A stretch of DNA of 64,000 nucleotides from an uncultured Peptococcaceae bacterium (GTDB taxonomy: Bacteria > Bacillota > Dehalobacteriia > UBA7702): the NCBI GenBank assembly GCA_964637365.1, contig CAZWWH010000002.1, positions 11,528 through 75,527 of the forward strand, given 5' to 3'. The translations under genes and the position numbers were made by a program. Under the pieces are notes generated by a model that searched no databases, had not been told where the DNA came from, and saw nothing but the letters and a program-made list of their open reading frames with translations. Below, in pieces: positions 5,211 to 57,886 of the stretch (position 1 is the first letter of the stretch; every line of letters starts with the position of its first letter).

Positions 5211-5833
5211 TCTGGCCATGGATTATACTGGCTATTTTACTCTTTTTATTATTTTATCCGCTGCGTATTAAGGGTCACTTTCGTTATGAAAAAGAACAAT
5301 GGCAAGGAAAGGTGACATTGCTTCCTTTCTTTGGGCTTAAATGGCCGAAAGTAACTTTGTTTGACTCCGATAGAACCAAGAAACGCGGCAAAGAAACGAA
5401 AAATGAAAAGAATCAAGCCAAAACCAAAATTGAAGGAAAGAAAAATCTATTTGGTCAGCAGCAATCCCTTGCTGAACAAATTCCCATAGTTCTGGAACTG
5501 CTTTCCGGTGCTAAGCAAGGAATTAAGAAGCTCCATGTTCGTTTTGTCTTCGGATATGGATTTAACGATCCAGCAGTTATGGGATACCTTACCGGTGCCA
5601 TTTATGGGATACTACCCTTGCTATTTGGTGATTTTCGTAACACCCATTGGTGCATTCGTGTCGAACCCCAATGGGGATTATCTGAAACCGTTGCTTTTGC
5701 CCGTTTTAACGCTACGGTAAGTCTTTTTTCTATGATTCGTTCTTTTGGACCTTTAATGCCGAAAGTTTATGATATGATTCCTAAAAAAACAAGGAGGAAT
5801 GAAAGATGTCGGAACATCCCATCGAATCCCTGA
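5207..5833 (+). CDS. Hypothetical membrane protein (YtfI-like)
   Basis: N-terminal TM helix, basic middle region. Sits directly upstream of ytfJ, as in the Bacillus ytfI-ytfJ pair. Family assignment is tentative. Confidence 0.4.
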   Translation: MIWPWIILAILLFLLFYPLRIKGHFRYEKEQWQGKVTLLPFFGLKWPKVTLFDSDRTKKRGKETKNEKNQAKTKIEGKKNLFGQQQSLAEQIPIVLELLSGAKQGIKKLHVRFVFGYGFNDPAVMGYLTGAIYGILPLLFGDFRNTHWCIRVEPQWGLSETVAFARFNATVSLFSMIRSFGPLMPKVYDMIPKKTRRNERCRNIPSNP

Positions 5834-6255
5834 TGTCAAGCGTATTAGAAAATTTAAAAAAAGTGGTTGACGCCAACACTGTCATTGGTGAGCCTATTTT
5901 ACTTCCCAACAATGTTTCCATTATTCCTGTCACAAAGCTATCCTGCGGCTTTGGTTGTGGAGGAGGAGAATACGGCCAAAAAGAAGGCGCTACAAAAATT
6001 CCCTTTGGCGGTGGTACTGGCGGCGGCATAAGCCTGCAGCCTTTGGGGTTTATCTCCGTTTCTGACCAGGATGTTAAATATATCCCCCTGGACAGCAATA
6101 CACCTGGTGGCATTGCAGACATAGTGGTAGACGGTATCGCTAAACTGGCCGCAGAACTTCCTAATTTGAAGAAAAAGAAATCCAAAAACGAGGAAAATGC
6201 CGCGGAAGTCATTGCTGAAATGGAAGAGGAAACACAAGAGATTCCCAAGGAATAA
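5806..6255 (+). CDS. ytfJ: GerW/YtfJ family sporulation protein
   Basis: Strong RBS AGGAGG. Conserved YtfJ N-terminal region (VIGEPILLPNNVSIIPVTKLSCGFGCGGGE). Confidence 0.65.
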   Translation: MSEHPIESLMSSVLENLKKVVDANTVIGEPILLPNNVSIIPVTKLSCGFGCGGGEYGQKEGATKIPFGGGTGGGISLQPLGFISVSDQDVKYIPLDSNTPGGIADIVVDGIAKLAAELPNLKKKKSKNEENAAEVIAEMEEETQEIPKE

Positions 6256-6308: not shown

Positions 6309-6324
6309 TTTATTAAGTAAATAA

Positions 6325-6585
6325 TGACAAACCTGTGTAAAGTATTGGAATGAGGTGAAATCCCTCAGCGGACGGGCCACTGTGATTGCTTTTTAGCATA
6401 AGCCAGATCTTTGCTTTGCGATATGCTCCCTGTTTCGGCCAATGGACAGTTCCATTGAGGTGTCAGTGAATTTATCCGTGTCGGTGCAACAGGCTGGCAC
6501 GGTTTTATTTTGTACCGAAAAATCACACAAGGTGTTTGATAGAAAAGAATGATTTTCTTATCTGCACCTTGTGTTTTTTTATTCT
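6325..6585 (+). promoter_or_regulatory. Cobalamin (B12) riboswitch with intrinsic terminator
   Basis: Core GGAATGAGGTGAAATCCCTCAGCGGACGGGCCACTGTGA (6355-6395). Partial B12-box AAGCCAGATCTTTGC. Terminator hairpin CACAAGGTG...CACCTTGTG + T7 at 6527-6580. Confidence 0.7.
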
Positions 6586-6955
6586 ACGTATTTTCCAGAC
6601 TGCTTTGGAAATTTTATTGATATATTTTTCCATATTTCATTCATTTGGTTTCTTCCTGAGCACTCTCCAAATCTTACCTTGACCAAATAAGCTTCGATCT
6701 CTTTACCCTATGCTTTTCCCATATCTTATGATAAGCGCCATTGTCGTATTTTCTTGGAATATACGCAATACCTGCTCAGGATGAAATATGATAGGCGCAG
6801 CTTCCGTCCTTTCTGCGCTGCGCCCTCGGTGCTTCCCCGTGGCCAAAAGCCGCGGGGTATGCCCGGATAATTACAAAATGCTATTGTAATTGTACATTTT
6901 GAAATAAATAAGTTTTTGCCGGTAGAAATTAATGCCGGAAATGAAAGGAGATTTT

Positions 6956-8554
6956 ATGAAAAGAATGAAACGATTCATCGCACCCTTACTTGCTCTTGTC
7001 ATGGTAATATCTTTTGCCTTCGGTGTCACAGCCGCCGAAATCAATGCCGATGATGCCTCTAACAGCTATGTTTATCTAACAATGGAGAAATTTACTTTAG
7101 GGCAGGAATGTATTTTTGCACCTATTGCCATTCCCTGGGAGGAGGGAATGACTGCCGCATCCATTCTCGTCGATAAGCTTGGGGACGACAATTATCAATG
7201 CAGTGGCTCTTTAGACGGTGGTGACCTTTACATTTCAGCAGTAAAAGACCCCGATCAAGGTAGTGTTGATATGCCGAAGGTTATTTATGATGCAGTAATG
7301 GGCAGCCAAAATGTAATCTCTGCCCGTAATGAGAAGGAATGGCTCGGAGAGTTTGATTATTACAATGAAAGTGGCTGGATGTTGACGGTGAATGATGATT
7401 TTATTGGCACAAGCTCTGCTGCTCATACATTACAGCCCGGTGACGTTGTCCGTTGGCAATTTACCGTGTATGGCCTTGGTGCTGATTTGGGTAACAGTAA
7501 CGAATCTTTTGGTGGATATGATAAATTAATTGATGCTGCCAACAAAGATGACCTGGTAAAATCCTTGGCAAATGCTACACAAAAAGATACCAACGCATAT
7601 AAAAATGCCTATTCAGTGTTGGTCAATGCTGCGGCAACCCAGGCAGAGGTTGATACTGCAAAGGCCAATTTGGATGCCAATGCTGATGTTCCTTTGAATC
7701 TTTCTTCTTGTGAAAAACAGCACATTATTTTTACGAATGGGCTTCAGTTAAGTGCTACTGAACTTCAACTTGCACCTAAGGAAACTGAAAAATTAACCGC
7801 CGTGGTAACGCCTGACACGGCTAATTTCTCCGAGGTGGTCTGGAAATCTTCAAGAAAAGCTGTCGCCACTGTTTCGGCTGACGGCACTGTAACCGCAGTC
7901 GGTGAGGGGACGGCTAAAATTACCGCTACTACCAAAGATGGCGGAGCATCTGCTGTTTGTGAGGTTACAGTAAAAAAAGATGATGCCCCGGTAGAGATAA
8001 AACTCCCGTTCTCTGATGTTCAGAAAAAGGATTGGTTTTATACTGATGTTCTTTATGTTTACGAGAATGAAATCATGAATGGTGTCAGTAATACTGTGTT
8101 TGGTCCCAATGACGACTTGACCCGTGGTCAATTTGTTGCTATTTTAGGTCGTTATGCTGGGATTAAAGATAGCTCTAAAGGTTCGCCTGCTTCTAAAACC
8201 TTCGATGATGTGAAAACAACAGAGTACTATGCTTCTCATGTGAAGTGGGCCATAGATCAGGGGATTACTAATGGCGTAAGTGAAAAGAATTTTGCCCCTA
8301 AAGAAAAAATCACTAGAGAACAAATGGCTGCAATGATGTACCGCTACGCAAAGGCGATTGGTGTTACATTACCTGGGGCCGATAGCGACAAGTTTTCTGA
8401 TGACAATAAGATTTCCTCCTATGCTAAGGATGCAGTATATAGCATGAAAGCTGCAGGCATCTTAGGCGGTATGGGGAATAACACTTTTGCGCCTAAGGGT
8501 AATACCACTCGGGCCCAAGCAGCTAAAGTGATTCATGTGTTCATGGAACTGTAA
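6956..8554 (+). CDS. Surface protein: signal peptide + DUF4430 (transcobalamin-like beta domain) + Big_2 + 3x SLH domains
   Basis: Signal peptide MKRMKRFIAPLLALVMVISFAFGVTAA. DUF4430-type motif GEFDYYNESGWMLTVNDD...LQPGDVVRWQFTVYGLGADLG. Big_2 Ig-like segment (7720-7980). Three C-terminal SLH repeats (F.DV..W....I...G...G...F.P....TRAQ). RBS GAAAGGAG. Confidence 0.7.
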   Translation: MKRMKRFIAPLLALVMVISFAFGVTAAEINADDASNSYVYLTMEKFTLGQECIFAPIAIPWEEGMTAASILVDKLGDDNYQCSGSLDGGDLYISAVKDPDQGSVDMPKVIYDAVMGSQNVISARNEKEWLGEFDYYNESGWMLTVNDDFIGTSSAAHTLQPGDVVRWQFTVYGLGADLGNSNESFGGYDKLIDAANKDDLVKSLANATQKDTNAYKNAYSVLVNAAATQAEVDTAKANLDANADVPLNLSSCEKQHIIFTNGLQLSATELQLAPKETEKLTAVVTPDTANFSEVVWKSSRKAVATVSADGTVTAVGEGTAKITATTKDGGASAVCEVTVKKDDAPVEIKLPFSDVQKKDWFYTDVLYVYENEIMNGVSNTVFGPNDDLTRGQFVAILGRYAGIKDSSKGSPASKTFDDVKTTEYYASHVKWAIDQGITNGVSEKNFAPKEKITREQMAAMMYRYAKAIGVTLPGADSDKFSDDNKISSYAKDAVYSMKAAGILGGMGNNTFAPKGNTTRAQAAKVIHVFMEL

Positions 8555-8588
8555 AGTACTATATATAGGATAGGGAAGATAGATAAAG

Positions 8589-8623
8589 AAAACCGGAGTA
8601 TTCCTTTGAATACTCCGGTTTTA
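8589..8623. terminator. Bidirectional intrinsic terminator hairpin
   Basis: AAAACCGGAGTATTC-ctttg-GAATACTCCGGTTTTA: perfect stem flanked by an A-tract and a T-tract. Confidence 0.6.
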
Positions 8624-8821
8624 TATTGCCTTCAATTTAGCAACAAAAAAATCGCGGAACCATTCGGTTCCGCTGAAGGAAGGATAAAAGATAGAGATAA
8701 GAGTAGAAGATTCAGAATGAGATACGGATTATCATAAAAACTCATAGAGAGAGGAGTTTTAGAAAGGAGGGCAGCCGGCTGTACAATGACTGCCAAATTA
8801 AAAATAAGGAGATGATAGGTT

Positions 8822-9066
8822 TGGCAACTAAAAAAACTTTGTTCCCAAAGAGGAACAAAGCGCTTTTACAATGAAAAACACAAAACCTCTTACGCGGAAG
8901 TTCTTTGTAAATTCATAGGCTGAAATATCCTGACTTACCTTCTACGTTGATACCGCCTTCCCGCATGAACAGTGGCAAATGGTAACAACTCGGGTTTCAC
9001 AGTGGCGCGACCGTTGAGGATTTTCACCTCATTCCTTCTGCACCTATGATTTTTTGATTCAATTAC
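8822..9066 (-). promoter_or_regulatory. Cobalamin riboswitch (orphan; no downstream CDS) with intrinsic terminator
   Basis: Minus-strand core GGAATGAGGTGAAAATCCTCAACGGTCGCGCCACTGTGAAAC, GGGAAGGCGG, and AAGTCAGGATA B12-box-like segment. Terminator GCGCTTTGTTCC-tctttg-GGAACAAAG + T7 (plus 8822-8858). Confidence 0.6.
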
Positions 9067-9073
9067 TATAATT

Positions 9074-9102
9074 ATAATACATTAAAATCTACAAAAATTC
9101 AA
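9074..9102 (-). promoter_or_regulatory. Sigma70-type promoter (TTGAAT-17-TATTAT) for the orphan riboswitch
   Basis: Minus-strand -35 TTGAAT, 17-nt spacer, -10 TATTAT in an AT-rich region. Confidence 0.4.
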
Positions 9103-9231
9103 GTTAAGATATTATAACTATTCACTATAAAATTTTGCGTTTAAAGTTACTACATATTTAAGGGTAACCAGAGCAAAACTTATAATTATAAAATAAGGCT
9201 GTCCGGTTTTCCGAACAGCCTTACTACTCGA

Positions 9232-12102
9232 TTATGAGGGGACATCAGGATTTTTGTTAGGGCCACGCTTTTGTTTTTTATGGACAATCGTGGCGGTTAT
9301 GATAATGCCTGCTGCAAGTACAATGACTACAATAGAGCCAATGGCAATCCAACGGTGTTGCTCCCAGAATGATGTTAATTCTTCGGTAACACTATTATTA
9401 CCATGATCTGATTTGGTGTCATCGGTGTCTAACAGTGAACCTGCTTTGGCTCTTTTGGCAATAAAGTAATCACTACAATGCTCAATGATAAATTTCGTTG
9501 CTCCACCTTCGGCTGAAACTTTGTCAATAAATTCGGCCCTCATTTCTTCTGGTACGTAGTAAAAGAGGAGATATTTGCCGTCGGCTAATGATGTCTCCGG
9601 AATTTCAACCAAAGCTGGTCCTGGCATTTCACCTTCATGCATGAAGTGGATGATAAAAGGATCATCCGCTAGCTTACGGATGTTATCTTCGTTTTCACAA
9701 TCTTCTTTGCCAAAATAAATTTGCATATTAAAGTCCATGGGATTTTTGATGTCAGTGCCATTGAACGTAATGACGTAAGATTCCCCATTCTCAGTGGTAC
9801 CATCAAGCACCAAATTGATATTTTTTCCCTTAATTTCTTCAAATACTGATTTGGGTACTATGCCATTAGAAAAGTCGGCGCTGGTATACATGCGCCTTTT
9901 GCCGGAAACTTTCCTTTGAGAGAGAATATAGTCGCCTCCACGGTTTGCTTCGAACGTGGCTTGCATATTTTTGAGTGTTACTCCTACTTTTTCAAAGTCC
10001 TTTTTGGCTGCATTGTAGTAGTACATGGAGTATTTGCTTCCCGTTAAATCGACACTAATGGTGACGGTTGCCTTACCGGGGAATTCACCTTGGTGGGGGA
10101 AGTTCAGATAATAGGCGTCGGAAACAAAATCTCTAATTTCTTGTCCGTTGGCGGGAGTTGTCAGGATTCGGGCATCAAAATCCATGGGATTACTAATTTC
10201 TTTGCCTTTAAACGTGATGGTATATGCGTATTTATTATCGCACACACCTGTAATGGTATATTCCACATCTTTTCCGGAGATTAGTTCGAAAACCTCTTTG
10301 ATGACAATATTCTTTTTCAGGCCTTCGATAATTTTGCGGGCCAATAGTAAATCATCACTATGTTCCAGACTTTTTTGCTCTTTTTCTGAAAGCTTTAAAT
10401 AGCGCTGATAAAGAGCGTCTACCATGTTTTCATCGCTAAGTCTTATATTAATGGGATTGATAGATGCGGCAATATCTGCGTCCAATTTTTTTGCCGCATC
10501 GCTTATCGGATCGTCAGGATTATCCGAGGGATCGTTAATTTTGCTCAATTCTTTGATCTCGTCCAAAAGAATTTGCAGTTTACCGCGGTTGCTGATTTTT
10601 GACTTGTCGCTGCTGTTTAAGAGATTGTATTTTTGAGCGGTATCATAAATACTTTTAATATCTTCTTTCGTGGCGGTTTCCGGTAACTGCTCAATACTTT
10701 TGATGATGCTGTTAATTGTTTCTTCGGAACTGTTCGCTTCTTCTCTGAGATCGAAGAGGGGACGGAATCCATTGACAAAGCGGTAATATGCAACTAAGGC
10801 ATATCTTGCCTGGTCTGTTGCTATATGATTGCTTTCTCCAGCTGTTGCGTTGGAGCTGCCGTCTTTAGAGTAGGAATGAATAAAACCACCGTCTTTGCTG
10901 TTATAGTAGGCCAACAAGCCATCTAAAACAGTTTTTCCATTGTCAGTGATGAATCTTTGATCGCTAAGAGGATCGATCTGTAAGGAGCACAATGCCACCA
11001 GAACTTGAGCAGTGCTTTCTGCGTTGGGTACAGAAATGCTACCAAAGCCACCATCGTCTAGCTGCATTGCGGAAAGACGCGCCAATGCTTCGTCAACAAT
11101 GGTCTTGATCGTTTTCCCATTGGAATATACGGTAGTGGAGTCATAATAGGGAGCCAATGCCTGGAGTACCAAAGCAGTAATATCTGTATCACTGGAAGAA
11201 CTCGATAGAGCAAAACCGCCATCAGATAGTTGCTTAGATATCAAATATTCCAGAATCGCTTCTCTGGTTGTCGTAGCGTTTTCTGGAACCTCATATCGTT
11301 CGGAATCCAATGCGATTAAACCCCATGCCGCGCCATTAATACCTTGTTTCCACATGGGAGTCATGATACTCTGATAGATTCCGTCAGAAACTAAGTTTAC
11401 AGCGCTGCCATTTTTATCTTTCCCGAAGGATTTTGCATCTCTGCCCAAAGCGTTCAATGCCAAAATCGGACGGTGATAGTCGGTAGCTACGCGGTCACTC
11501 AGCCATCCTTTGGTTTGATAGGATTTGGTAACATAGGACTCAAGAGCCGTTAAGTAAGCTTCCGTGTCATCGGGATAACCAAATCTTGCAATGCCAAATG
11601 CCAGCCAATCGCAATCTGTGGTTCCGACACCAGCCAATGAACTTTCATTTAAGGCATAAAAGTTTTCCTGCTTTGACCAGTCAATCGTATTTTTAATGGC
11701 ATTTTCTAAATCATCGCTCAGATTGCGCACCGTACGTAGAGTGCCCGATAATTCCAATGATCCCTCTTCAACTGAACGATTATCGCCTTCCACAGTGGTG
11801 CTTTCAGATGATACGACACTGTGATCGATAATATTGTTGTAACCAGACAAAAATGTACGGAGCTGGAGTGATGTTACGCCTGCGCTATAAATATAGGCTT
11901 GGGAAGTACGTCCTGCCAGTTCGTCATAGCCCACATCCCAAATAAAATGTCCCCTTTGTGTCATGATTTGTTGCAGCGATTGGGCAGTAGTTGTGTCTTG
12001 GGTTTCTTCTTGATTGGATGATTCGTCATTTTTATCTCCACATCCCGTGAAAAAGAGACATAGCGCAAGACACAATACAACAATCAACGAGTGTTTTCTC
12101 AT
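9232..12102 (-). CDS. Large surface lipoprotein: alpha/alpha-toroid (prenyltransferase/terpene-cyclase-like) repeats + two tandem beta-domain repeats + C-terminal TM anchor
   Basis: Lipobox LFFTGCGD. Repeated Q/K.LsDGGF motifs (ISKQLSDGGFALS, AMQLDDGGFGS, YNSKDGGFIHS) typical of PF00432/SQHop-cyclase toroid repeats. Two ~140-aa internal repeats sharing ITF.G..I.NPMDF. C-terminal hydrophobic helix followed by KKQKRGP. RBS AGAGGGAG. Riboswitch directly upstream. Confidence 0.65.
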   Translation of the reverse strand: MRKHSLIVVLCLALCLFFTGCGDKNDESSNQEETQDTTTAQSLQQIMTQRGHFIWDVGYDELAGRTSQAYIYSAGVTSLQLRTFLSGYNNIIDHSVVSSESTTVEGDNRSVEEGSLELSGTLRTVRNLSDDLENAIKNTIDWSKQENFYALNESSLAGVGTTDCDWLAFGIARFGYPDDTEAYLTALESYVTKSYQTKGWLSDRVATDYHRPILALNALGRDAKSFGKDKNGSAVNLVSDGIYQSIMTPMWKQGINGAAWGLIALDSERYEVPENATTTREAILEYLISKQLSDGGFALSSSSSDTDITALVLQALAPYYDSTTVYSNGKTIKTIVDEALARLSAMQLDDGGFGSISVPNAESTAQVLVALCSLQIDPLSDQRFITDNGKTVLDGLLAYYNSKDGGFIHSYSKDGSSNATAGESNHIATDQARYALVAYYRFVNGFRPLFDLREEANSSEETINSIIKSIEQLPETATKEDIKSIYDTAQKYNLLNSSDKSKISNRGKLQILLDEIKELSKINDPSDNPDDPISDAAKKLDADIAASINPINIRLSDENMVDALYQRYLKLSEKEQKSLEHSDDLLLARKIIEGLKKNIVIKEVFELISGKDVEYTITGVCDNKYAYTITFKGKEISNPMDFDARILTTPANGQEIRDFVSDAYYLNFPHQGEFPGKATVTISVDLTGSKYSMYYYNAAKKDFEKVGVTLKNMQATFEANRGGDYILSQRKVSGKRRMYTSADFSNGIVPKSVFEEIKGKNINLVLDGTTENGESYVITFNGTDIKNPMDFNMQIYFGKEDCENEDNIRKLADDPFIIHFMHEGEMPGPALVEIPETSLADGKYLLFYYVPEEMRAEFIDKVSAEGGATKFIIEHCSDYFIAKRAKAGSLLDTDDTKSDHGNNSVTEELTSFWEQHRWIAIGSIVVIVLAAGIIITATIVHKKQKRGPNKNPDVPS

Positions 12103-12214: not shown

Positions 12215-12476
12215 TATAAATATAAAAGGGTATGGTAAAAAACCATACCCTTTCGCAATCGAATAGAATTCCAGTGATTCCAAATTTGAATACCTAAATT
12301 TTACAAATCTAGCAAATTCGAATCAAAGATACACCAGATTAACCTTTCTTCAGAAGGCATGGTAAGGTCAACCAAATGTTTTCTGGCTCATGCTAAAACG
12401 CAATCACAGTGGCCGGACCGCTGAGGAATCGCACCTCATTACCATTTTGATTACCTGTTACAATATCAAATTATCT
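12215..12476 (-). promoter_or_regulatory. Cobalamin riboswitch with intrinsic terminator (controls the 956-aa lipoprotein gene)
   Basis: Minus-strand core GGTAATGAGGTGCGATTCCTCAGCGGTCCGGCCACTGTGATTGCG. B12-box-like GAGCCAGAAAAC. Terminator AAGGGTATGGT-ttttt-ACCATACCCTT + TTTTAT (plus 12221-12260). Confidence 0.65.
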
Positions 12477-12482
12477 TAAAAT

Positions 12483-12511
12483 ATTATAATAATACTTGTA
12501 TAAAAAGTCAA
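12483..12511 (-). promoter_or_regulatory. Sigma70 promoter (TTGACT-17-TATAAT) for riboswitch c
   Basis: Near-consensus hexamers with a 17-nt spacer on the minus strand. Confidence 0.5.
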
Positions 12512-15722: not shown

Positions 15723-16910
15723 TTATGGATCCATCATACCGTATTTTTTTTTGACACGGTCTAACTTTTCTATCATTGGTTTTGAGAGAATCCAAAGAAA
15801 GAAAAAGGTGGCGACACCATGAACTGCATCAACGGGAATACCTGAAAGATATATGGCCAATGCCCCAGTTTTTTCCGTATTTGTTGTTAGAACTGTCCAT
15901 GTGTTTAATAGCAGCCCATAAATTACTTGTGCGCAGAAATAACCGAAAAAGCAAAGTGGAAGCCGTTTCTTAGAAAGCCAGCCTTTTTTGAATAACACCC
16001 CGGCCAAAAAGCCAATGATACCAAAGGCAAACATTTGCCACGGCGTCCAAGGGCCTTGACCAAAGAAAAAGTTCGAAACAAAAGCCGTCATCGCACCGCA
16101 GAGAAATCCCGCCTCAGCACCCAAACAAACACCGGAAATGGCAACAATTGCCCAAATTGGTTTTACATAGGGAAACATAAAGAAAGCTGCCCGTCCTAAG
16201 ATGGCGATTCCCACCATAACAGCGATGACTACCAGCTCTCTAGCTTCAGGCTTGCGCTGTTCAAAGATCATGAAGAAAGGGATCATCGTTTCAATGATAA
16301 TCATCAAACTGATAAAGTAGTATTGACGGTCATTCATAAAGAGGATGCCAAAAGCAATGGTAGCGGGGATAACCACTAGAATAAGGAGTGCAGCCATAGC
16401 CAAACGCTTCTTAACCCGGCGTATTAGAAGCACCATGAAAGCTACCAATAACGCTACGACCATAGCGATACACCCCTGTCCCATGACAAAGGTTGCTTTT
16501 GGATCTACCTGAGTTTTTATGACATGGGAAACATAAAAGTATGTGATAAAAACGAATACTACAGCTAAAATGGAACTGAAAAAGGTCCAGATGGTATTAT
16601 CACTATTTTTTGTAGCTTTGTTCTTGTTAAAAAGCATGGCCAGGCCAAAGGCCATGGTAATGGTGGTGGCCAATCCCATAATTCTAATGACTGAGATAAG
16701 GGATTTCGCTGTTTCCGGAATTGCTTTTGCAATATCGGATTTATAGAACTTAGTTATAAAATTATAGAGACTGAAGGTAATGGTCTGGTTATCCGCCGTT
16801 ACAGTAATAAAGGGCATTGCTACGCAGACCAGAGCCACGATCAAGGCTGTGCGGGCGATTTCCTTTATGGTATGATTTTCATTTATTTTGTCTGTAAGTT
16901 CTGCTTGCAT
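15723..16910 (-). CDS. ECF-transporter S-component-like polytopic membrane protein, paralog 2 (~11 TM)
   Basis: About 11 predicted TM helices. First 295 codons are nucleotide-identical to the upstream paralog. C-terminal ~100 aa diverge. Last gene of the riboswitch-controlled ECF operon. Confidence 0.55.
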   Translation of the reverse strand: MQAELTDKINENHTIKEIARTALIVALVCVAMPFITVTADNQTITFSLYNFITKFYKSDIAKAIPETAKSLISVIRIMGLATTITMAFGLAMLFNKNKATKNSDNTIWTFFSSILAVVFVFITYFYVSHVIKTQVDPKATFVMGQGCIAMVVALLVAFMVLLIRRVKKRLAMAALLILVVIPATIAFGILFMNDRQYYFISLMIIIETMIPFFMIFEQRKPEARELVVIAVMVGIAILGRAAFFMFPYVKPIWAIVAISGVCLGAEAGFLCGAMTAFVSNFFFGQGPWTPWQMFAFGIIGFLAGVLFKKGWLSKKRLPLCFFGYFCAQVIYGLLLNTWTVLTTNTEKTGALAIYLSGIPVDAVHGVATFFFLWILSKPMIEKLDRVKKKYGMMDP

Positions 16911-16944: not shown

Positions 16945-18138
16945 TTATGATTCCATCATACCGTATTTCTTTTTGATGCGATCTAATTTTTCTATCATTG
17001 GTTTTGAGAGAACCCATAGAAAAAAGAAGGTGGAAATTCCGTAAACCATGTTGACGGGAAAGCCTGAAATATAATAGGCTAAGGGACCTGTGGTGCTAGT
17101 ATCAAAAGCTAAAGTGAAAATTGTACAGGTATCCATAATGAGCCCATAGACAATTAATGCACTAAAAAAGCCAAAGATGCAAAGTGGAAGCCGCTTCTTA
17201 GAAAGCCAGCCTTTTTTAAAGAATATGCCTGCCAAGAAGCCAATAAGCCCTAATGCAAACATTTGCCACGGCGTCCAAGGGCCTTGACCAAAGAAAAAGT
17301 TCGAAACAAAAGCCGTCATCGCACCGCAGAGAAATCCCGCCTCAGCACCCAAACAAACACCGGAAATGGCAACAATTGCCCAAATTGGTTTTACATAGGG
17401 AAACATAAAGAAAGCTGCCCGTCCTAAGATGGCGATTCCCACCATAACAGCGATGACTACCAGCTCTCTAGCTTCAGGCTTGCGCTGTTCAAAGATCATG
17501 AAGAAAGGGATCATCGTTTCAATGATAATCATCAAACTGATAAAGTAGTATTGACGGTCATTCATAAAGAGGATGCCAAAAGCAATGGTAGCGGGGATAA
17601 CCACTAGAATAAGGAGTGCAGCCATAGCCAAACGCTTCTTAACCCGGCGTATTAGAAGCACCATGAAAGCTACCAATAACGCTACGACCATAGCGATACA
17701 CCCCTGTCCCATGACAAAGGTTGCTTTTGGATCTACCTGAGTTTTTATGACATGGGAAACATAAAAGTATGTGATAAAAACGAATACTACAGCTAAAATG
17801 GAACTGAAAAAGGTCCAGATGGTATTATCACTATTTTTTGTAGCTTTGTTCTTGTTAAAAAGCATGGCCAGGCCAAAGGCCATGGTAATGGTGGTGGCCA
17901 ATCCCATAATTCTAATGACTGAGATAAGGGATTTCGCTGTTTCCGGAATTGCTTTTGCAATATCGGATTTATAGAACTTAGTTATAAAATTATAGAGACT
18001 GAAGGTAATGGTCTGGTTATCCGCCGTTACAGTAATAAAGGGCATTGCTACGCAGACCAGAGCCACGATCAAGGCTGTGCGGGCGATTTCCTTTATGGTA
18101 TGATTTTCATTTATTTTGTCTGTAAATTCTGCTTGCAT
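16945..18138 (-). CDS. ECF-transporter S-component-like polytopic membrane protein, paralog 1 (~11 TM)
   Basis: Same architecture as paralog 2. Start overlaps the ecfA 3' end by 28 nt, implying translational coupling. The C-terminal half (ARELVVIAVMVGIAILGRAAF..., GQGPWTPWQ) resembles ECF S-components. Confidence 0.55.
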   Translation of the reverse strand: MQAEFTDKINENHTIKEIARTALIVALVCVAMPFITVTADNQTITFSLYNFITKFYKSDIAKAIPETAKSLISVIRIMGLATTITMAFGLAMLFNKNKATKNSDNTIWTFFSSILAVVFVFITYFYVSHVIKTQVDPKATFVMGQGCIAMVVALLVAFMVLLIRRVKKRLAMAALLILVVIPATIAFGILFMNDRQYYFISLMIIIETMIPFFMIFEQRKPEARELVVIAVMVGIAILGRAAFFMFPYVKPIWAIVAISGVCLGAEAGFLCGAMTAFVSNFFFGQGPWTPWQMFALGLIGFLAGIFFKKGWLSKKRLPLCIFGFFSALIVYGLIMDTCTIFTLAFDTSTTGPLAYYISGFPVNMVYGISTFFFLWVLSKPMIEKLDRIKKKYGMMES

Positions 18139-19790: not shown

Positions 19791-20653
19791 TTAACATCCT
19801 CCATTATATCAATCACCATGGGGAAAAAACATAGAAAACCGTAGGCAATGTAAACAAATATCGCCAGCGGAGTTGTTTCATTCATGATGAACAATGGGCT
19901 GTACGAGATAAAAATCTTGCCTATTGCCACCATAATAAAGGCGAATAGTGTCGGAATTATAATAGAGGCAATCACAATGTAATCTCTGGTATCGAAACGG
20001 AAAATAGAAAAGCTGGTGCGCCCCGGAAGTCCATAACCTCGGGAACGCATGGAATCCGCTGTTTCAATTCCATTTTCCAATGCCCATGTTGTCATAATTG
20101 ATATGATTTTCATACCGTTTTTGGCCTTTTCAACGAGATTTCCTTCAGTCGCATCCCGACCCATACATTTTTGCCCATTAGAAATTACTTTGATTTGTGC
20201 TTTGAATTTCGGAACAAAACGCAGCACCATGGATAGTACCAAAGAAATTGCGGGAATGACCCGGCCAAAAAGGTAGATAAATTTATCTGATGTCATCACT
20301 GCGTTATAGCAGGAAAACCACATGATAACTGTAACAAACATTGTGGCGGAGGCGAGCCCGTAAATCAATGATTCCAAAGTTAACGGATTACCGCTGGGAA
20401 AATAAGTGAGAATCGTAGCGCCCTGATGATTGAAAAGAGGATTCATGACGGCTGCGAGAATTAAAAGCGGAAGCATTGCGCAGAGATTAAACAGCAGCGC
20501 CTTTTTTCCATTTAGATAAATAGAATAGGTTATAGCAGCCACGAAGGATATTGCGAGAAAAACTGGCTGCATCATAAACATGGTAAATAAAATGACAATA
20601 AGAAAAAATGAAAAATTTATAATTGGATGAAGCGTAGAAAAAGCGTCTTTCAT
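19763..20653 (-). CDS. ECF transporter transmembrane (T) component, CbiQ/EcfT family
   Basis: Polytopic membrane protein with the EcfT signature region ...ADSMRSRGYGLPGRT... RBS GGAGG 8 nt upstream of ATG (MKDAFST...). Overlaps the ecfA start. Confidence 0.7.
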   Translation of the reverse strand: MKDAFSTLHPIINFSFFLIVILFTMFMMQPVFLAISFVAAITYSIYLNGKKALLFNLCAMLPLLILAAVMNPLFNHQGATILTYFPSGNPLTLESLIYGLASATMFVTVIMWFSCYNAVMTSDKFIYLFGRVIPAISLVLSMVLRFVPKFKAQIKVISNGQKCMGRDATEGNLVEKAKNGMKIISIMTTWALENGIETADSMRSRGYGLPGRTSFSIFRFDTRDYIVIASIIIPTLFAFIMVAIGKIFISYSPLFIMNETTPLAIFVYIAYGFLCFFPMVIDIMEDVKWHVMKSKI

Positions 20654-20699: not shown

Positions 20700-20882
20700 A
20701 TAAAAAAATCCTGCACCGAGCGCAGGACAATAGGGTACCACTGAAACCTCAGTCACGGAAGGCTTGGTAAATACAGCAAACAAAGTTTTCTGGCTTCCGA
20801 GTTTATGGCTCGTATCACAGTGGCCGGACCGCCGGGGAGTCTAACCCCGTTACCTTATGTCATTGCATTTCGATATTTGCTT
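20700..20882 (-). promoter_or_regulatory. Cobalamin riboswitch with intrinsic terminator controlling the ECF operon
   Basis: Minus-strand core GGTAACGGGGTTAGACTCCCCGGCGGTCCGGCCACTGTGATACG. B12-box-like GAAGCCAGAAAAC. Terminator CCTGCGCTCGGTGCAGG + T7 immediately upstream of the ecfT RBS. Confidence 0.6.
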
Positions 20883-20889
20883 TTTAATA

Positions 20890-20918
20890 ATCATAACAAA
20901 TTTTTTCGCTTTGCACAA
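20890..20918 (-). promoter_or_regulatory. Putative sigma70 promoter with extended -10 (TTGTGC-17-TGtTATGAT)
   Basis: Minus-strand hexamers with 17-nt spacer and a TG extended -10 element. Confidence 0.35.
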
Positions 20919-56507: not shown

Positions 56508-56559
56508 TTTAGACCTTTACAAAATAAAGAATTGTGCTATAATATTAAAAAATGAAAAA

Positions 56560-56720
56560 TTCTTCGGGGACGGTTCGATTCCGTACCGGCGGTAAAGCCC
56601 GCGAGCCTACTTGGTTGATTCGGTGAAATTCCGAAGCCGACAGTAAAGTCTGGATGGAAGAAGAATGGTGATTATTTATCATGCTTTGGGAGCCCCGATA
56701 TCAATCGGGGCTTTTTTGCG
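56560..56720 (+). promoter_or_regulatory. FMN riboswitch (RFN element) with intrinsic terminator
   Basis: TTCTTCGGGGACGG...CCGTACCGGCGGTAAAGCCCG...GATTCGGTGAAATTCCGAAGCCGACAGTAAAGTCTGGATGGAAGAAGAATG. Terminator GGGAGCCCCGAT-atcaa-TCGGGGCTTTTTT. Confidence 0.85.
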
Positions 56721-56737
56721 TATATGGGAGTGATGGA

Positions 56738-57886
56738 ATGCAAATTGAAGATGAGAAATATCATGAACAGTTTATGCGTAGAGCTCTGCATTTAGCGGAA
56801 AAAGCCAAGGGTTTTACCGCACCTAATCCCATGGTTGGTGCAGTCATTGTAAAAAATGGTCAAATTGTAGGGGAAGGGTATCATCGCCGTGCTGGTGAAA
56901 ACCATGCAGAGGTCAATGCACTGCATCGTGCCGGGACTCATGCCCAAGGAGCTACGATATACGTTACTCTAGAGCCTTGTTCCCACTATGGAAAAACCCC
57001 ACCTTGTGCCGATGCACTGATTCGGGCAGGAATTAAAGAAGTATATATCGCAGTGGCAGATCCGAATCCAAAAGTTAACGGTGGTGGGATTCAGAAACTG
57101 GAACAAGCTGGAATTAAAGTGCATATAGGCCTTTGCGGCAAGGAAGCATTTTATTTAAATGAGGTATTTTTTACTAACCATACAGAGAAACGTGCTTTTG
57201 TGGCGTTAAAAAGCGCGCAAAGCATTGACGGGAAAATTGGCCCAGACAATGGAGCTCCTATAAGAATCACCTCTGAATTATCACGGAAATACGGTCATAT
57301 GCTGCGTCGGGAATATGGCGCTGTTTTGGTGGGAATCAATACCATATTAAATGATGACCCCGTGCTGAATATCCGCTATGATATTCCCCATGATAGTAAT
57401 AGACCAATATGTATTATTGTTGATTCAGAAATGAGAATACCGCTTAACGCCAAGGTATTGGATTTAAATGATGGGCCAATTCTGATATATACCGCAGCCG
57501 AGCTTTCCCGTAGTTTACGGGGAAAAATCGAAAGTAAAGGCGTGGAAGTAGTAGCCCTTCCTGATGGATATGGTCGTGTTGATTTGAAACAGTTGCCTTA
57601 TGATTTATATCAACGCGGTATTTGTGGTGTCTTGATAGAAGGCGGCTCTCAGATTCTAAGCAGTTTTTTTTCTGCTGAAAATTGGGATCGGTATTATGCT
57701 TTTACAGCACCAAAACTCATCGGCAAGCAAGGAATTCCACTTTTTGCTCATACCCCCCAAACAGTTCTGGACAACATAATACGAGATAAAGCCCAGATGA
57801 TTGATGAGGATATCCTGGTAGAATATCTCAGAAAGGATGGATTTGATCGATGTTTACCGGAATTATTGAAGAAAAGGGAATCCTAA
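56738..57886 (+). CDS. ribD: Bifunctional diaminohydroxyphosphoribosylaminopyrimidine deaminase / 5-amino-6-(5-phosphoribosylamino)uracil reductase
   Basis: CMP/dCMP deaminase zinc motifs (HAE...PCSHYG) plus reductase domain. Confidence 0.85.
   Translation: MQIEDEKYHEQFMRRALHLAEKAKGFTAPNPMVGAVIVKNGQIVGEGYHRRAGENHAEVNALHRAGTHAQGATIYVTLEPCSHYGKTPPCADALIRAGIKEVYIAVADPNPKVNGGGIQKLEQAGIKVHIGLCGKEAFYLNEVFFTNHTEKRAFVALKSAQSIDGKIGPDNGAPIRITSELSRKYGHMLRREYGAVLVGINTILNDDPVLNIRYDIPHDSNRPICIIVDSEMRIPLNAKVLDLNDGPILIYTAAELSRSLRGKIESKGVEVVALPDGYGRVDLKQLPYDLYQRGICGVLIEGGSQILSSFFSAENWDRYYAFTAPKLIGKQGIPLFAHTPQTVLDNIIRDKAQMIDEDILVEYLRKDGFDRCLPELLKKRES

Follow-up and report, generated by a model that had tools for sequence, protein, structure and literature searches.

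A candidate B12-gated non-coding RNA convergent on a surface-protein gene in uncultured Clostridia

Only a handful of known riboswitches control a non-coding RNA instead of a gene, and in the reviewed B12 cases, Rli55/EutX and AspocR, the effectors are an ANTAR decoy and an antisense RNA, respectively. With Rli55 of Listeria monocytogenes and EutX of Enterococcus faecalis, which are small RNAs (sRNAs) of the eut locus, B12 yields a short terminated RNA and the lack of B12 a longer one, whose 3' extension is the effector and sequesters EutV through ANTAR-binding hairpins (PMC8079631). AspocR, also of L. monocytogenes, is convergent at the 3' end of pocR and occurs as a 230-nucleotide (nt) terminated form with B12 and as a 1,400-nt form across pocR (PMC8079631). 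An S-box riboswitch antisense RNA of Clostridium acetobutylicum is convergent with the ubiG-mccBA operon and lies downstream of it (PMC2566862), and the catalogue of antisense-acting riboswitches by Serrano-Gutierrez and Merino (2023) holds 190 convergent cobalamin cases, one of them opposite an Ig-like surface-protein gene in Parabacteroides; its cases are defined by orientation only, with read-through assumed, and none stands opposite a DUF4430 or SLH gene (PMC9943018). Here we analyze an orphan cobalamin riboswitch on the minus strand of a 64,000-nt stretch of DNA from an uncultured Peptococcaceae bacterium (contig CAZWWH010000002.1, positions 11,528 to 75,527; this whole stretch is called the window below), which together with its terminators and a conserved 3' extension may constitute a regulatory RNA controlled by B12.

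Orphan cobalamin riboswitch and its expression platform

The Rfam covariance model RF00174 matches positions 9062..8901 of the minus strand with 71.2 bits (gathering threshold 31.5, E 1.4e-15) over model positions 1-189, that is, at full length, in agreement with the first-pass annotation, which had called a cobalamin riboswitch with a conserved core on this strand. The aptamer (8901..9062, 162 nt) is of the long form with a P6 extension, has an L5 loop UCGCG at 9010..9006, and is both the best scoring of the four cobalamin-type riboswitches in the window and the only full-length match among them. The B12 box (GCCACUG...GGGAAGGC) and AGUCAGGA are present in the RF00174 alignment and are identical in a second lineage that carries the same unit (locus L009, described below).

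A promoter-like site precedes the aptamer at 9102..9074 on the minus strand (-35 TTGAAT at 9102..9097, -10 TATTAT at 9079..9074, spacer of 17 nt), with a perfect TATAAT at 9076..9071 overlapping the -10 hexamer, and the predicted transcription start is at about 9066. Promoter-like hexamers are frequent in this AT-rich spacer (8 observed, 3.5 expected), and for this reason the promoter by itself is weak evidence; the hexamers are those that had been claimed here as a good sigma70 promoter. The spacing between the -10 and the conserved 5' end, GUAA(A)UUGAAU, is the same in L009 as in the window, and in L009 the -10 is of the extended type (TGgTATAAT). Upstream on the same strand is a gene for a 956-amino-acid (aa) protein (12102..9232), which has its own strong intrinsic terminator (9225..9192, minus strand; 15-bp stem, -23.0 kcal/mol, 6 U in the tail), so that the riboswitch unit is insulated and is not merely the 3' untranslated region (UTR) of that gene. 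The unit thus appears to be an independent transcription unit, which would use this putative promoter.

Between the aptamer and the first terminator we find a P13-type regulatory hairpin (8871..8916, core 8904..8882, minus strand; fold z -3.8) with a 7-nt loop, CGCGUAA (8896..8890), which inspection shows to be complementary to the L5 loop (CGCG/CGCG). A kissing loop between L5 and L13 is the typical layout of cobalamin riboswitches, and such a contact would join the aptamer to its expression platform here; L5 and the L13 loop, CGCG(G/U)AA, are kept in L009 while the P13 stem varies. The platform ends in terminator T1 (hairpin 8861..8836, with its tail to 8829, minus strand), whose stem has 11 bp (-13.3 kcal/mol) and is followed by a U6 tail, UUUUUUAGUU; it corresponds to the intrinsic terminator in which the element had been said to end. 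Read off from T1, the predicted short form would be about 237 nt long.

Extension, further terminators and coding potential

Beyond T1 lies a CU-rich, G-poor extension of 155 nt (8828..8674, minus strand) that would be present in a long form only, and that is recognized by its composition (C 28%, G 10%, U 42%) and by its conservation in L009. It is the most pyrimidine-rich 100 nt of the 64-kb window on the transcribed strand (76%), and it holds several motifs that resemble anti-Shine-Dalgarno sequences (AUCUCCUU, CCCUCCUUUC, ACUCCUCUCUCU and UCCUUCCUU). Directly 3' of the T1 U tract is a conserved 10-mer, GUUGCCAAAC (8819..8828, minus strand), identical in L009, which by this placement would occur only in read-through RNA. 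The extension is followed by a second terminator, T2 (hairpin 8673..8654, with its tail to 8644; 8-bp stem with 6 GC pairs, U7, tail GAUUUUUUUG), which lacks a U tail on the plus strand and therefore serves the minus strand only; it sets the predicted 3' end of the long form near 8646, for a length of about 420 nt. A third terminator, T3 (8622..8589, 15 bp), is bidirectional: it terminates the convergent plus-strand gene and backs up T2.

That convergent gene (6956..8554, plus strand) encodes a 532-aa surface protein with DUF4430, Big_2 and three SLH domains. The first-pass annotation had placed the element convergent on it, which is correct and holds for L009 as well, and had considered read-through antisense transcription into it as one possibility. 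Under such a mechanism, of the AspocR or the S-box/ubiG type, a read-through RNA made at low B12, or the polymerase itself, would reach the plus-strand gene or its 3' UTR and alter its expression or the stability of its mRNA. The convergence is conserved in both lineages, there are precedents (PMC8079631, PMC2566862) and the 190 convergent cobalamin riboswitches surveyed represent an enrichment (P 1e-10; PMC9943018); in addition, T1 has a partial U tail on the plus strand, in the window as in L009, so that an mRNA escaping T3 could end there and would then be fully complementary to the extension. Two minus-strand terminators with U7-type tails (T2 and T3, both conserved in L009) nevertheless stand between T1 and the convergent gene, and because they do so we predict that T1 read-through yields a separate transcript of some 420 nt and not antisense RNA into coding sequence. 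The long RNA is predicted to end at about 8646 and the plus-strand mRNA at about 8630, so that the two should not overlap, and the long form would stop some 90 nt short of the convergent stop codon. The regulatory logic is awkward too. The convergent gene has its own 5' cobalamin-type riboswitch (6319..6452, plus strand; 39 bits, sub-threshold), taken to be a B12 OFF-switch, and its product resembles B12-binder-type surface proteins, which would be needed when B12 is scarce; an antisense RNA produced at low B12 would repress this protein exactly when its own switch should be ON, which would be counter-productive. We consequently disfavor both the read-through into 6956-8554 and the AspocR-type action that had been suggested, and regard the antisense mechanism as unlikely.

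The comparison with AspocR is instructive in this respect. AspocR, the window and L009 all have a cobalamin riboswitch that faces the 3' end of a convergent gene, but here there are two extra terminators, the neighbor in the window is not a regulator of B12-dependent pathways, and the regulatory sense does not fit: repression of this type would call for a target that is useless without the ligand, whereas the B12-binder-like protein here would be needed precisely when the ligand is scarce. By position alone the window unit would be classed with the antisense-acting cobalamin riboswitches and would stand next to the S-box/ubiG case; the terminators in between speak against such a mechanism, and for neither the S-box case nor any case in the catalogue is there a description of a conserved extension with a second terminator at its end.

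A closer match in mechanism is Rli55/EutX, to which the element had also been likened. The two-isoform logic is shared: a stand-alone riboswitch, its own promoter-like site, T1 and a second 3' end at T2 predict two RNAs of about 237 and 420 nt, and the same elements are found in L009. The effector module and the surroundings are not shared. The extension here is an unstructured CU-rich tract that lacks ANTAR-type dual hexaloop hairpins (A at position 1, G at position 4) in the window and in L009 alike, and it matches no Rfam family at E <= 1 in either; its neighbors in the window are DUF4430, SLH and ECF-transporter genes, that is, genes for B12 uptake and surface proteins, and there are no eut or ANTAR proteins among the open reading frames (ORFs) scanned up to 49 kb (an MttB-family methyltransferase, a BCCT transporter and NrdD are among those between 21 and 49 kb). 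Since the ANTAR test, which defines the family, failed, we place the unit mechanistically closest to Rli55/EutX yet outside that family.

We also considered that the extension or the platform hides a small protein. On the minus strand downstream of the riboswitch there are only ORFs with TTG starts, at 8742..8858 (38 aa) and 8632..8796 (54 aa), both without a Shine-Dalgarno sequence and each crossing terminator hairpins. A further frame of 17 codons with a GUG start, MFFIVKALCSSLGTKFF, lies at 8881..8828 (minus strand), where AAGAGG in the 3' strand of P13 is spaced as AAGAGG-N4-GUG and the frame spans T1. In L009 there is no start codon at the equivalent position, and this frame probably arose by chance or is what is left of a translational platform. 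No ORF is common to the units of the window and L009 on either strand, the insertions and deletions between them are not multiples of three and break the reading frame, and the minus strand of the extension is devoid of a purine-rich Shine-Dalgarno sequence. A peptide encoded by the GUG frame or by the extension is thus, in our view, very improbable indeed; the unit appears to be non-coding, with no credible ORF after the riboswitch, as the first-pass annotation had held.

A second lineage and the proposed mechanism

The locus that carries the unit a second time, L009, comes from the Clostridia metagenome-assembled genome SARD16_bin.024 (GC 51%, compared with 42% for the window). It came to light in a scan of genome contigs with the 532-aa protein, which matched SLH domains only, and in which L009 was the top SLH match. 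The whole unit is present on its minus strand and is again convergent on a DUF4430...SLH gene, here encoding a 998-aa protein with DUF4430, cadherin-like, beta-propeller and SLH domains. A full-length cobalamin riboswitch (6149..5959, 60.5 bits) is followed by T1 (5915..5890), directly after whose tail stands the identical 10-mer, by a CU-rich tract of 133 nt between T1 and T2 that is the most pyrimidine-rich stretch of the locus (80%) and has a G content within 10-11%, as in the window, by T2 (5746..5727, U7) and by T3 (5646..5615), all on the minus strand. The predicted isoforms of about 258 and 420 nt match the lengths in the window. The linkage of the unit to a DUF4430...SLH gene in both lineages is one of position only, seen in the gene order.

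The SLH domains of the two convergent neighbors are only 42% identical as proteins, and neutral DNA is therefore expected to be saturated between the lineages. We aligned the window and L009 globally, segment by segment, and compared the scores with those of dinucleotide-preserving shuffles. Conservation was strongest in the aptamer (z 7.5) and extended to the platform (P13 and T1, z 4.2) and the extension (z 3.9, none of 300 shuffles reaching the observed score), and was absent from the DNA upstream of the -35 (z -0.2) and from the T2-T3 spacer (z -0.1). Compensatory changes maintain the helices, with four pairs in P4, one in P13, and four plus two one-sided changes in T1. This pattern indicates that selection acts on the riboswitch, its terminator and the extension, and the conservation of the whole unit backs the riboswitch-controlled non-coding RNA as the best reading of the locus; of what had been suggested for it, the riboswitch sRNA is thus the version that we retain.

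We propose the following mechanism. Transcription would start at about 9066 on the minus strand; with adenosylcobalamin bound, the CGCG/CGCG kissing of L5 and L13 would lock P13, T1 would form, and an aptamer-only RNA of about 237 nt would be released. Without B12, T1 would be bypassed, the 155-nt pyrimidine-rich extension would be added, and transcription would stop at T2, with T3 as a back-up; the product would be a defined transcript, some 420 nt long, that stays out of the convergent gene. The extension would be the effector and would at low B12 most likely act in trans, its exposed CU-rich anti-Shine-Dalgarno motifs and the 10-mer GUUGCCAAAC pairing with purine-rich ribosome-binding regions of mRNAs; sequestration of an RNA-binding protein would be a less likely mode. 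The outcome would be a response to B12 limitation. The Firmicutes C-rich sRNAs RoxS/RsaE and FsrA offer a functional analogy: their exposed C/U-rich motifs pair with Shine-Dalgarno regions, and FsrA mediates an iron-sparing (cofactor-sparing) response. The likeness is limited to the proposed pairing and to a cofactor-sparing logic for B12; for RoxS/RsaE and FsrA, protein regulators act on the promoter, whereas control here would lie with a riboswitch, the sequences are unrelated, and the pairing here is predicted.

Several points weigh against this mechanism. The first concerns switching in the window copy, where an antiterminator is not clearly predicted: the best alternative fold has -14 kcal/mol and the terminator fold -27 kcal/mol, the former being obtained with the terminator blocked, when UAAGAGG of P13 pairs with CCUCUUU of T1. 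In L009 the antiterminator is textbook-clear, the 3' strand of P1 (CCCCGUUUU) pairing with the 3' strand of T1 (GAAGCGGGG). Given the weak prediction in the window, we treat ligand-dependent switching of this copy as putative. The second concerns targets. Whole-length duplex folding is meaningless for long sequences. In a search for short complementary words, the best complementarity elsewhere in the window, 13 nt (E 0.32) inside two ECF S-component paralogues, is at chance level, the complement of the 10-mer is found nowhere else nearby, and duplex energies with the start regions of local B12 genes are no better than those of shuffled RNA. An 8-nt match to the Shine-Dalgarno region of the neighbor, found in both lineages, was rejected as evidence, being expected for any CU-rich RNA. 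The third is distribution. The unit is known from two independent lineages only; in L001, the closest relative when judged by the 956-aa protein (69% identity), that gene is followed by recN and not by a riboswitch unit; and five other DUF4430-SLH loci (P0123, P0124, P0133, P0144 and P0156) are without a convergent riboswitch. The unit is thus patchy and not a general feature of DUF4430-SLH loci. Finally, the C-rich, G-poor tract also resembles a Rho-loading site.

Part of this would fit a functionless relic or a mere insulator: a leader whose operon disappeared in a rearrangement, or a C-rich tract with terminators that stops stray transcription, for example by loading Rho. The unit sits at a synteny break, given the recN arrangement in L001, the composition of the extension fits a rut site, and no target was found. 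Such an account is at odds with the conservation of extension and platform between lineages whose flanking spacers have no similarity, with the compensatory changes that maintain T1, with the conserved promoter position, 5' end and isoform lengths, and with an aptamer that outscores the other three in the window, and we consider it quite improbable. Since the unit recurs in a distant Clostridia genome beside a gene for a B12-binding-type surface protein, we regard a functional regulatory RNA under riboswitch control as more probable than a relic.

Taking these points together, we hold it to be about as likely as not that the unit makes a non-coding RNA that is gated by B12 and acts in trans, through its long form, when B12 is low; the two isoforms and the trans action are both predictions from the two loci. 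Distinctly more tentative, and in our estimation less probable, is the fuller version, in which the roughly 420-nt conserved trans-acting sRNA of uncultured Clostridia would be a third mechanistic type of RNA under B12-riboswitch control, genetically linked to S-layer-anchored B12-scavenging proteins. Its riboswitch-gated 3' module, an unstructured CU-rich tract containing GUUGCCAAAC, would at low B12 act on ribosome-binding sites to silence mRNAs, in a B12-sparing response like that of the iron-sparing sRNAs except that the RNA itself would be the sensor.

B12-uptake island, distribution and significance

The surroundings of the unit form a B12-uptake island with four cobalamin-type riboswitches. 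In addition to the orphan and to the one ahead of the convergent gene, there is one at 12486..12356 (minus strand, 35 bits), ahead of the gene for the 956-aa prenyltransferase-like surface protein, and one at 20894..20763 (minus strand, 27 bits), ahead of an ECF transporter operon. The three other aptamers measure 131-134 nt, compared with 162 nt for the orphan, and in the one short copy with an alignment, at 12486..12356, the P6-extension region is largely missing; riboswitches of two structural subclasses, which could differ in corrinoid selectivity, may thus be in use in the island. Between the 6319-6452 riboswitch and the start codon at 6956 lie some 500 nt (6453-6955, plus strand), in which there are several GC-rich hairpins and two hairpins that resemble terminators, one near 6470-6510 and one near 6528-6595, so that the 6956 gene has either an unusually long leader or a second promoter. 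In L009, another cobalamin riboswitch (6385-6502, plus strand), with its own bidirectional terminator, heads the gene for an 877-aa SLH protein and diverges from the promoter region of the non-coding RNA, giving a back-to-back riboswitch pair.

Other features of the window are reported for completeness. Tandem ECF S-component-like genes at 15723-16910 (395 aa) and 16945-18138 (397 aa), both on the minus strand, are identical over about their first 290 residues, and a same-species contig (L033) has a dense cluster of 45 single-nucleotide polymorphisms (SNPs) at 16122-16319, in one of the two copies, which points to a recent gene-conversion event that involved the two paralogues of the window strain. 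Beside the island, the segment 21097-28436 (plus strand) encodes a sigma-54 activator, an MttB-family methyltransferase (495 bits), an MFS transporter, a BCCT betaine/carnitine/choline transporter and a DUF3786 protein; it looks like a corrinoid-dependent quaternary-amine demethylation cluster and is a plausible consumer of imported B12. An ordinary FMN riboswitch (56556-56669, plus strand, 108 bits) is directly upstream of an ORF at 56681-57886 and of further plus-strand ORFs.

Searches for further copies added little. Two same-species contigs were uninformative for the unit, L008 (GCA_036306385.1) being identical across it and L033, 99.6% identical overall, having no SNP in 7968-10116. An nhmmer profile of platform and extension, run against 160 loci, matched only the two known copies (the window and L009), and a pattern scan of viral contigs and a plasmid BLAST returned nothing. 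A pattern specific for L5, applied to metagenome DNA, was rejected as a source of relatives: it retrieved 120 unrelated riboswitches, mostly on high-GC contigs, with only a 40-nt core in common. The lineage itself is very thinly sampled; for the DUF2953 neighbor there were three non-self homologues among 5.8 billion proteins, with a single long contig, ending at ytfJ.

The related loci yielded three observations in their own right. In L001 an OLE RNA (20026-20625, minus strand, 426 bits) lies beside a polyprenyl synthetase gene, which places this lineage among the OLE-bearing anaerobic Firmicutes. In two others (L002, 9993-10111, and L003, 8056-8174) a cobalamin riboswitch of 67 bits overlaps the called start of the gene for P0002 (898 aa), and because of this overlap the start codon has probably been mis-called upstream. 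On three gut metagenome contigs (L034, 1981-2059; L035, 335-413; L036, 76-154) we find the orphan motif Gut-1 RNA (RF01706, 64 bits), about 175 nt upstream of the DUF4430-Big2-SLH orthologue P0124 (36% identical), in the position that a cobalamin riboswitch occupies ahead of the window gene; the motif is built of four hairpins in tandem, and the linker between them, GUGAAAUCC, is similar to GGUGAAAAUCC, the L4 sequence of the riboswitch.

For the annotation of riboswitches in general, the locus is a warning that calls of antisense action made by orientation only can be wrong where terminators intervene. If the proposed mechanism is true, two distant anaerobic Clostridia would carry a conserved effector module different from both the antisense RNA and the ANTAR decoy, and the design of a riboswitch plus an exchangeable sRNA module would be more general. 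It would also provide a handle on how B12-auxotrophic anaerobes of gut and digester re-programme themselves at corrinoid shortage; these organisms are equipped with ECF transporters, with S-layer proteins that scavenge B12 and, some 14 kb away, with an MttB-family gene, of a type that functions together with corrinoid proteins.

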